Of a stretch of DNA of 7,341 nt, positions 2,717-3,233 are shown in pieces. Made by a program: the position numbers and the translations under genes. The stretch covers positions 1-7,341 of IMG/VR virus record IMGVR_UViG_2654587792_000035; one strand, 5' to 3'. The notes beneath the pieces were generated by a model, which saw nothing but the letters and a program-made list of their open reading frames with translations, was not told where the DNA came from and did no database searches. This stretch comes from a virus. Its lineage: Duplodnaviria > Heunggongvirae > Uroviricota > Caudoviricetes. Position 1 is the stretch's first letter. Each line of letters opens with the position of its first letter.

Positions 2717-2920
2717 ATGAGAAATCATACCATACACCCGCAAGGGCGGGACTCGTACAACCTGAATAAATACATCTGGCGTTTTATCGCCCTGAGCACG
2801 GCACAACCGCGCGTGATTACCATTGAGGCCAGCAGCGAACAGGAAGCACGCCAGCAATCCCCGGCTGGCTGCGTGATGGTATTCGCCGCCCGTATTCGTC
2901 AGGGGGGGGGCCATGCCTGA
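2717..2920 (+). CDS. Small early protein (67 aa); tentatively Icd-like (host cell division inhibitor family)
   Basis: ATG at 2717 with GAGG 5 nt upstream, inside track ORF 2627..2920. Product MRNHTIHPQGRDSYNLNKYIWRFIALSTAQPRVITIEASSEQEARQQSPAGCVMVFAARIRQGGGHA. The family assignment is from memory of Icd-like proteins in P4-like prophages and is not verified. Its last codons contain a G9 tract and it overlaps the next gene by 8 nt. Confidence 0.55.
   Translation: MRNHTIHPQGRDSYNLNKYIWRFIALSTAQPRVITIEASSEQEARQQSPAGCVMVFAARIRQGGGHA
2902..2910. repeat. Homopolymeric G9 tract spanning the end of the Icd-like gene and the RBS/start region of the next gene
   Basis: Nine consecutive G at 2902-2910, read directly. 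Loss of one G puts the upstream reading frame in phase with the downstream gene and removes the TGA at 2918-2920 from the frame. Confidence 0.9.
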
Positions 2921-3233
2921 TATGTCAAATTACCAGTACCTGATTAATCCGCATTTTAACTGTGAGCATGATATTGCTAAAAAGGTTTATTCCGCTGCGG
3001 ATGGGGCTACTGACAATATATCAATGGCTGTTGCGTCAATTGGTAGCCTGATGTGGCATGCGTCAGAAAATGAGGACTATGACGAAAAGGCCATGCGCAT
3101 TGATATGGGTAATATTGGTTTGTTACTGGCAATGCTTGGACATTTTGATATTTCGTTACGGTGCACCATTGAAAATGCCACAGATGCATTAAATGCTATA
3201 AAGAAAGCGAATACTGATTCAAATCGGGGATAA
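2913..3233 (+). CDS. Hypothetical acidic protein (106 aa), translationally coupled to the upstream gene
   Basis: ATG at 2913 overlaps the preceding stop (2918-2920); the G-run serves as a Shine-Dalgarno element. An alternative in-frame ATG at 2922 is also possible. No recognisable motif; composition is acidic and helix-prone. Confidence 0.6.
   Translation: MPDMSNYQYLINPHFNCEHDIAKKVYSAADGATDNISMAVASIGSLMWHASENEDYDEKAMRIDMGNIGLLLAMLGHFDISLRCTIENATDALNAIKKANTDSNRG

Follow-up and report, generated by a model that had tools for sequence, protein, structure and literature searches.

A nine-G run at the junction of two overlapping genes in an Escherichia coli phage satellite: probably a drifted Shine–Dalgarno sequence and not a fusion switch

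The window, as we call the whole 7341-nt stretch of DNA analysed here, carries nine consecutive G residues at 2902–2910 (+ strand), where the gene for an Icd-like protein meets a gene for a 106-residue protein (orf106). From sequence and conservation it is very probable that this is an ordinary translational-coupling junction whose Shine–Dalgarno (SD) sequence drifted to a pure G run in one lineage of Escherichia coli, and not a fusion switch. The ancestral segment, GG(A/G)GGTG, would have been the SD of orf106 placed inside codons for a dispensable C-terminal tail of the Icd-like protein, with the orf106 ATG overlapping the Icd-like stop codon, as is classically seen where two separate proteins are translationally coupled. 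The pure G9 run would then have been made within a single E. coli lineage by two substitutions of T by G, GGGGGTGTG passing through GGGGGGGTG to GGGGGGGGG, with the SD retained in a somewhat weaker form. A mild hotspot for ±1 indels or sequencing errors would have arisen as a by-product, and selection, the direction of which we infer, would hold the length of nine nucleotides in about 97% or more of the copies.

The Icd-like gene (2717–2920, +; ATG at 2717, TGA at 2918–2920) encodes 67 residues ending in the tail QGGGHA, and orf106 (2913–3233, +) encodes a protein of unknown function. A nine-G run within the final codons of the Icd-like gene had been pointed out in the preliminary description; both the run (GGGGGGGGG, in the context CGTATTCGTCAGGGGGGGGGCCATGCCTGATATG) and its location were confirmed. 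It covers part of Gln-62 and Gly-63 to Gly-65 of the Icd-like protein, which ends with ...CAG GGG GGG GGC CAT GCC TGA (QGGGHA*), forms the SD region of orf106 and is a derived allele of GGGGGTGTG. No other 9-mer of G or C exists on either strand of the window, and no other G or C run there reaches seven residues. In dinucleotide-preserving shuffles, 0.04 matches were expected, with at least one match in 5 of 200 shuffles. The ATG of orf106 (2913) stands two bases past the run. The two open reading frames overlap by 8 nt (ATGCCTGA, 2913–2920), and the Icd-like TGA falls within codons 2–3 of orf106 in the other frame.

The run is coding and uninterrupted, it has the size of contingency tracts (about 7–8 residues or more), and its length sets the frame. 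When the length was varied in silico, G8 gave a fusion protein of 171 residues and G11 one of 172 residues, while G10 and G7 gave Icd-like variants of 75 and 74 residues, respectively, without fusion. The earlier statement that loss of one G fuses the 67- and 106-residue frames and removes the stop codon between them thus holds for the fusion, but not for the stop codon: the frames overlap by 8 nt and no stop codon intervenes. The G8 and G11 alleles leave both the SD and the ATG of orf106 as they are and extend the Icd-like protein at its C terminus by 106 residues; in the G10 allele that protein gains a short out-of-frame tail. As the SD and ATG remain intact after a slip, orf106 should still be producible on its own, and modulation of the downstream gene is not expected.

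Ten-species conservation, the existence of the GGAGGTGCG allele and the predicted pairing with the anti-SD sequence together indicate that the 9-nt segment at 2902–2910 is the SD of orf106. The predicted duplex with the 3' end of 16S rRNA has −10.9 kcal/mol for G9, −14.3 kcal/mol for GGGGGTGTG and −14.0 kcal/mol for both G7TG and GGAGGTGCG. The SD complementarity lies inside the upstream frame, a few bases before the orf106 start codon, which itself overlaps the upstream stop codon. Many overlapping gene pairs in phage operons have the SD of the second gene inside the first. The junction shares with such coupled pairs of the ATGxxTGA type the 8-nt overlap of start and stop, the strong SD in the last Icd-like codons, the conservation of the arrangement in ten species and an upstream gene that matches NF033153; it differs in that the SD of the window's lineage has mutated into a homopolymer. 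The layout is typical of translational coupling, which we infer for the Icd-like gene and orf106. The icd-ant pair of the phage P1 immI region is the namesake example of this organization. For the present pair, tblastn against the phage records revealed no detectable similarity to a P1 record, and Rfam revealed no C4-type antisense RNA. A hairpin occluding the SD and ATG appeared in the minimum free energy folds of most alleles and was dropped as a candidate, since it is no more stable than in shuffled sequence (z = +1.0); there is no structural support from it for obligatory coupling.

Relatives of the Icd-like gene from 10 other Enterobacterales species (E. ruysiae, E. albertii, Shigella, Cedecea, Citrobacter, Enterobacter, Rahnella, Rosenbergiella, Superficieibacter and Intestinirhabdus) all have the same overlap with an SD inside the upstream frame. 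Their last codons contain GGAGGTG, GGGGGTG, GGAGGTT or GAGAGGTG, the ATG of the next frame follows 3–4 nt after the G-rich segment, and the overlap with the Icd-like stop codon is 8 nt, or 11 nt in the case of two species. A homopolymer is absent from the junction in all 10. The occurrence of GGAGGTG at exactly the place of the tract speaks for the earlier proposal that the tract supplies the SD of the next gene. In Superficieibacter, the downstream frame is a homologue of orf106 with 40% identity and the same overlap. It aligns without gaps from residue 1 and shares the amino terminus M-x-D-M, which shows that the start at 2913 is conserved and that orf106 is an independent gene. RefSeq likewise annotates the Icd-like gene (a 204-nt CDS) and orf106 as two separate CDSs, for example in E. 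coli strain D5.

The Icd-like gene is present in hundreds of other E. coli islands, and similarity to them ends exactly at the tract and start codon (around 2906–2916); different small genes follow there (with protein starts MCNNT..., MINLS..., MREPI... and others). Because homology stops at this point and different genes follow, the 3' side of the Icd-like gene appears to be a variable gene slot, with the conserved SD-CCATG as a module boundary. Some islands with other downstream genes have 8-nt junctions (GGGGGGCG in L091 and L092, GGGGAACA in L093) that fuse the Icd-like gene in frame to the next gene. The corresponding proteins of 143 and 130 residues are found in NCBI assemblies, and one of the junctions lacks a long G run; these junctions may be real alleles or errors.

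The junction was also analysed in viral and metagenome contigs using a pattern that allowed 5–16 nt between conserved flanks. In all 81 contigs (40 from IMG/VR, 41 from metagenomes) the segment is exactly 9 nt long. The allele GGGGGTGTG accounts for 68 of them. G9 was found in four (two from IMG/VR, two from metagenomes), GGGGGTATG also in four, G7TG in two, and AGGGGTGTG, GGAGGTGCG (from a metagenome) and G7TA in one each. A search of 5426 complete E. coli genomes found the junction in 456. The 89-nt junction of the window occurs exactly in nine of these, and 23 are one substitution off; the one read, strain SMS-3-5, has G7TG. Most of the remaining genomes have two mismatches, and the five sequences read at this level all have GGGGGTGTG. 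Length variants in complete genomes are G8 in strain elppa10 (GCF_020827555.1) and G9TG in strain ST648.

Since all outgroups have a T at the sixth position, the alleles can be ordered from GGGGGTGTG via GGGGGGGTG (G7TG) to GGGGGGGGG (G9), with the Icd-like tail changing from QGVCHA via QGGCHA to QGGGHA. Divergence of up to 0.7% and mosaic exchanges separate the window from the islands that carry G9, which indicates that G9 is a stably inherited allele and no sequencing error. According to the preliminary description, the real gene is the fused form, or else expression of the downstream gene is stochastically modulated. This is contradicted by homologues that lack the tract and keep the same two-gene layout, namely those with GGGGGTGTG in most of the 456 genomes and 68 of the 81 contigs, and those of the 10 other species. 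The comparison of tract length across related islands that it had proposed did reveal length variants, but G9 is absent from most islands and the 9-nt length is nearly fixed.

How stable this length is was assessed by a census, in which proteins with the window's own Icd-like background were looked up as exact sequences among about 15 billion proteins and counted in contigs. The tail QGVCHA (G5TGTG) was found on 60 contigs, QGGCHA (G7TG) on 757 and QGGGHA (G9) on 256, with two further contigs on which the G9 allele is read from a TTG start at 2627 (97 residues). The 75-residue form occurred on seven contigs as G10 and on six as a +1 variant of G7TG or G5TGTG, the 171-residue −1 fusion (G8 or G6TG) on 15, the 172-residue +2 fusion (G11 or G9TG) on one and the 74-residue form (G7) on none. 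In a control background with GGGGGTGTG, the normal protein was found on at least 999 contigs, the −1 fusion on one to two and the +1 form on two. Length variants thus amount to 2.8% for the G7 and G9 alleles (29 versus 1015 normal contigs) and to at most 0.4% for G5TGTG (Fisher P = 1e-5), these percentages being frequencies in databases, where true mutations and sequencing errors are combined, and not mutation rates. Both reading frames are kept in about 97% of the contigs with G7TG or G9. With 16 fusing and 13 non-fusing shifts, the fusion frame is not favoured.

The complete genomes gave a corresponding picture: length variants occur in two of 34 genomes of the long-run class (89-nt junction at most one substitution from that of the window, or a length variant thereof) versus none of about 422 others (P = 0.005). 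Synthetic junction queries with G4TGTG and G6TGTG had no exact match in the complete E. coli genomes. Of the two variants, the G9TG junction of ST648 (L005/L106, NZ_CP008697.1) is suspect, because several housekeeping genes nearby are annotated as ‘frameshifted’: there are three such genes among 33 neighbouring features, yehI, yehP and yehW, all within 40 kb. This strain has the same regulatory and replication module in another island backbone, with a different integrase and adjoining rcnR. The surroundings of the G8 junction in elppa10 contain no frameshifted gene among 53 neighbouring features. As this assembly is clean, G8 may be real, and real slippage mutations probably occur. A cluster of 171-residue fusion proteins from Logan contigs (P0001) was rejected as a G-run fusion, since its DNA reads G4TGTG, which is the interrupted allele less one G; additional frameshifts in sibling contigs, at an A6 run and within the primase gene, make read errors the most likely cause. 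Part of the length variation, in ST648 and in the Logan contigs, is therefore artefact.

A second homopolymer difference was observed in the same island. The window has an A8 run at 5658–5665 (in the gene equivalent at 5641–5886), where A7 is found in strain D5 and in the roughly 20 complete E. coli genomes that match best. With the additional A, a hypothetical gene of 81 residues (WP_000125504.1 in D5) is cut short after 14 codons. The only other sequence with A8 is one IMG/VR contig (L027), which also has G9. To judge from these sequences, it may be a genuine homopolymer frameshift or an error.

The Icd-like protein matches NF033153 over residues 19–62 with 69.6 bits (E = 1.7e-19), well above the curated cut-off of 25, and phrog_6196 with E = 1e-42. 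The codons of the G tract lie at the extreme end of the domain matched by NF033153 and past it. For P1 Icd, cell division inhibition directed at FtsZ has been demonstrated, and its C-terminal 21 residues are dispensable (PMC11897509). When 50 697 phage records were searched by tblastn with the Icd-like protein as query, no P1 record was matched at E ≤ 1e-3, and the one match was a 16.5-kb ‘induced prophage’. As no P1 record was matched, the Icd-like function is one by name only. The orf106 protein matches phrog_15327 over its full length (1–106 of 106, E = 2e-71) and has no match in Pfam, NCBIfam or PADLOC. PADLOC also gave nothing significant for seven proteins of the window (those of the Icd-like operon, the YlcI/YnfO-family protein, the DUF1441 protein and the last frame). 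Rfam gave no match at E ≤ 1 in the whole window, and hence no C4-like antisense RNA in the region preceding the Icd-like gene.

Gram-negative phage-inducible chromosomal islands (PICIs) and P4-like satellites of E. coli have int, alpA and primase genes. The window shares with these a tyrosine integrase (1–1239, +), AlpA (1662–1868, +), a D5_N/Pox_D5 primase (3521–5353, +), an SSB protein (5884–6306, +) and a DUF1441 protein resembling small terminase subunits (6485–7057, +). By this gene content it is part of a phage satellite, a PICI or P4-like island, with its early/replication operon, and covers only about 7.3 kb of the island. The Icd-like gene and orf106 are followed in their operon by a DUF4222 gene (3240–3539, +; Pfam and the RefSeq annotation of strain D5). 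Positions 1–6418 are 99.94% identical to an island adjoining cspD/yljB in D5, a G9 strain. Positions 6419–7341, with the DUF1441 protein and the next frame, diverge from the D5 island and are about 96% identical to a different part of two other contigs (L030 and L060). From these comparisons the island is a mosaic. The stretch 5400–7341 is covered to at least 80% in only three complete genomes.

Upstream of the Icd-like operon, a consensus scan detected a promoter-like sequence, TTGACG-17-TAACAT (2581–2609, +), of putative function. It lies between the Icd-like gene and the divergent gene for a YlcI/YnfO-family protein (2214–2519, −) and is flanked by repeats (2538–2621): GTGTGTTTCA / TGAAACACAC occurs three times, in direct orientation at 2541 and 2586 and inverted at 2610, and 2538–2550 forms a perfect 13-nt inverted repeat with 2609–2621. 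These repeats look like candidate operator sites of the island's regulatory switch. A frame of 272 residues (1879–2697, +) runs antisense to 1983–2156 and to the YlcI/YnfO gene. Its counterpart in related islands shares the frame of the Icd-like gene, giving rise to database proteins of 214–300 residues named ‘Icd-like’ or ‘ash family’. We rejected these as natural fusions, as the Icd-like domain is C-terminal in them and their amino termini are over-extended.

Poly-G/C contingency loci of Neisseria, Haemophilus and Campylobacter undergo slipped-strand phase variation. The G9 and G7TG alleles could likewise form a true contingency locus, in which replication slippage would switch between separate proteins and a fusion of 171 or 172 residues or a 75-residue variant, to adaptive effect, for example in escape from a toxic Icd-like effector. 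We consider this unlikely. As in those loci, there is a coding G run of at least eight residues, changes of ±1 shift the frame and length variants exist among isolates; unlike there, the run is interrupted in most homologues, about 3% of copies are off the in-frame length, there is no preferred pair of on and off lengths, and orf106 keeps its own SD and ATG at every length. The roughly sevenfold excess of length variants in G7 and G9 over G5TGTG alleles agrees with a switch, as do the fusion frame of both complete-genome variants, the G8 allele in an otherwise clean genome and the fused 8-nt junctions in islands with other downstream genes. In E. coli, indel rates increase exponentially as runs lengthen, and G·C runs of 8 bp, such as those in leu tRNA genes, are hotspots (PMC8510543); the variant share at the present tract rises with run length in the same way, from at most 0.4% for G5 to 2.8% for G7/G9, although these are database frequencies and not measured rates of mutation. 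A possibly related set of six linked prophage genes, including a primase, has been reported as a cell-death system with an Icd-like protein as its likely effector (bioRxiv 10.1101/2023.04.06.535777), and by analogy the present protein may be such an effector. Against adaptive switching stands the lack of a conserved repeat, the SD being interrupted in most E. coli islands and in all 10 other species, together with the retention of 9 nt in about 97% of long-run copies and the near balance of 16 fusing and 13 non-fusing shifts in the large census. Frequent on/off polymorphism was not found either: variants make up 2.8%, one of the two genome variants comes from an error-prone assembly, and the Logan fusion contigs have further frameshifts. 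The earlier view of the run as a slipped-strand phase-variation site is therefore upheld in so far as it is more variable in length than its interrupted ancestor, but fused alleles are rare (16 contigs versus more than 1000). It is very unlikely that the G7–G9 run is a low-frequency heritable switch, by which 1–3% of lineages would change from the 67-residue Icd-like protein, possibly a toxic or abortive-infection effector, to the 171-residue fusion or 75-residue variant while orf106 is still made.

Fusion protein could also be produced from a G9 template without any mutation, by transcriptional slippage (−1 or +2 G) or by +1 ribosomal frameshifting on GGG codons. On a nine-base homopolymer the RNA:DNA hybrid or tRNA-Gly could in principle realign without mismatches, and the required shift opens the 171-residue frame. 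This mode of expression is nevertheless highly improbable. Transcriptome-wide in E. coli, slippage insertions in homopolymers were all found in A or T runs, G/C runs were described as ‘not prone to slippage’ and deletions were rarely found in homopolymers (PMC5574713). The run here is G, and fusion requires −1 or +2 and not the common +1 insertion, so that transcriptional slippage at G9, which the preliminary description had also considered, is unlikely. No stimulatory element for recoding was found: there is no significant local structure and no Rfam match. A conserved recoding signal is ruled out because the run is missing from most homologues, and the fusion proteins are rare and partly artefactual. 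Least probable, and almost negligibly so, is that the G9 of the window arose by an error of sequencing or assembly from a true sequence that is fused (G8) or interrupted. The tract had been called a classic site of sequencing errors; homopolymers are indeed prone to error, and the window has its unusual A8 where relatives have A7, but nine independent complete genomes, their isolates coming from dogs, humans and the environment, have the identical 89-nt G9 junction, as do the four viral and metagenome contigs, and 256 contigs encode precisely the QGGGHA protein. This reading of the window's G9 is essentially refuted.

With the junction most probably an ordinary coupled one, little changes for the biology of the island. 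RefSeq is correct in annotating two genes, the junction is a textbook overlap of a known kind with the SD inside the upstream frame, and the G9 of the window is genuine and should not be ‘corrected’. Database entries for ‘fusions’ of 171 or 172 residues and for Icd-like proteins of 75 residues are rare slip mutants or homopolymer errors and do not represent a new family. If, speculatively and by analogy, the island were akin to the reported cell-death system, slips that extend the Icd-like protein could matter, and if that protein were a toxic effector, hotspots of this kind could be a route to its inactivation. Should a heritable switch exist after all, host lineages could tune or escape the growth-inhibiting function of the satellite. 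More generally, the case illustrates how a G-rich SD may drift to a homopolymer and thereby create a local indel hotspot.
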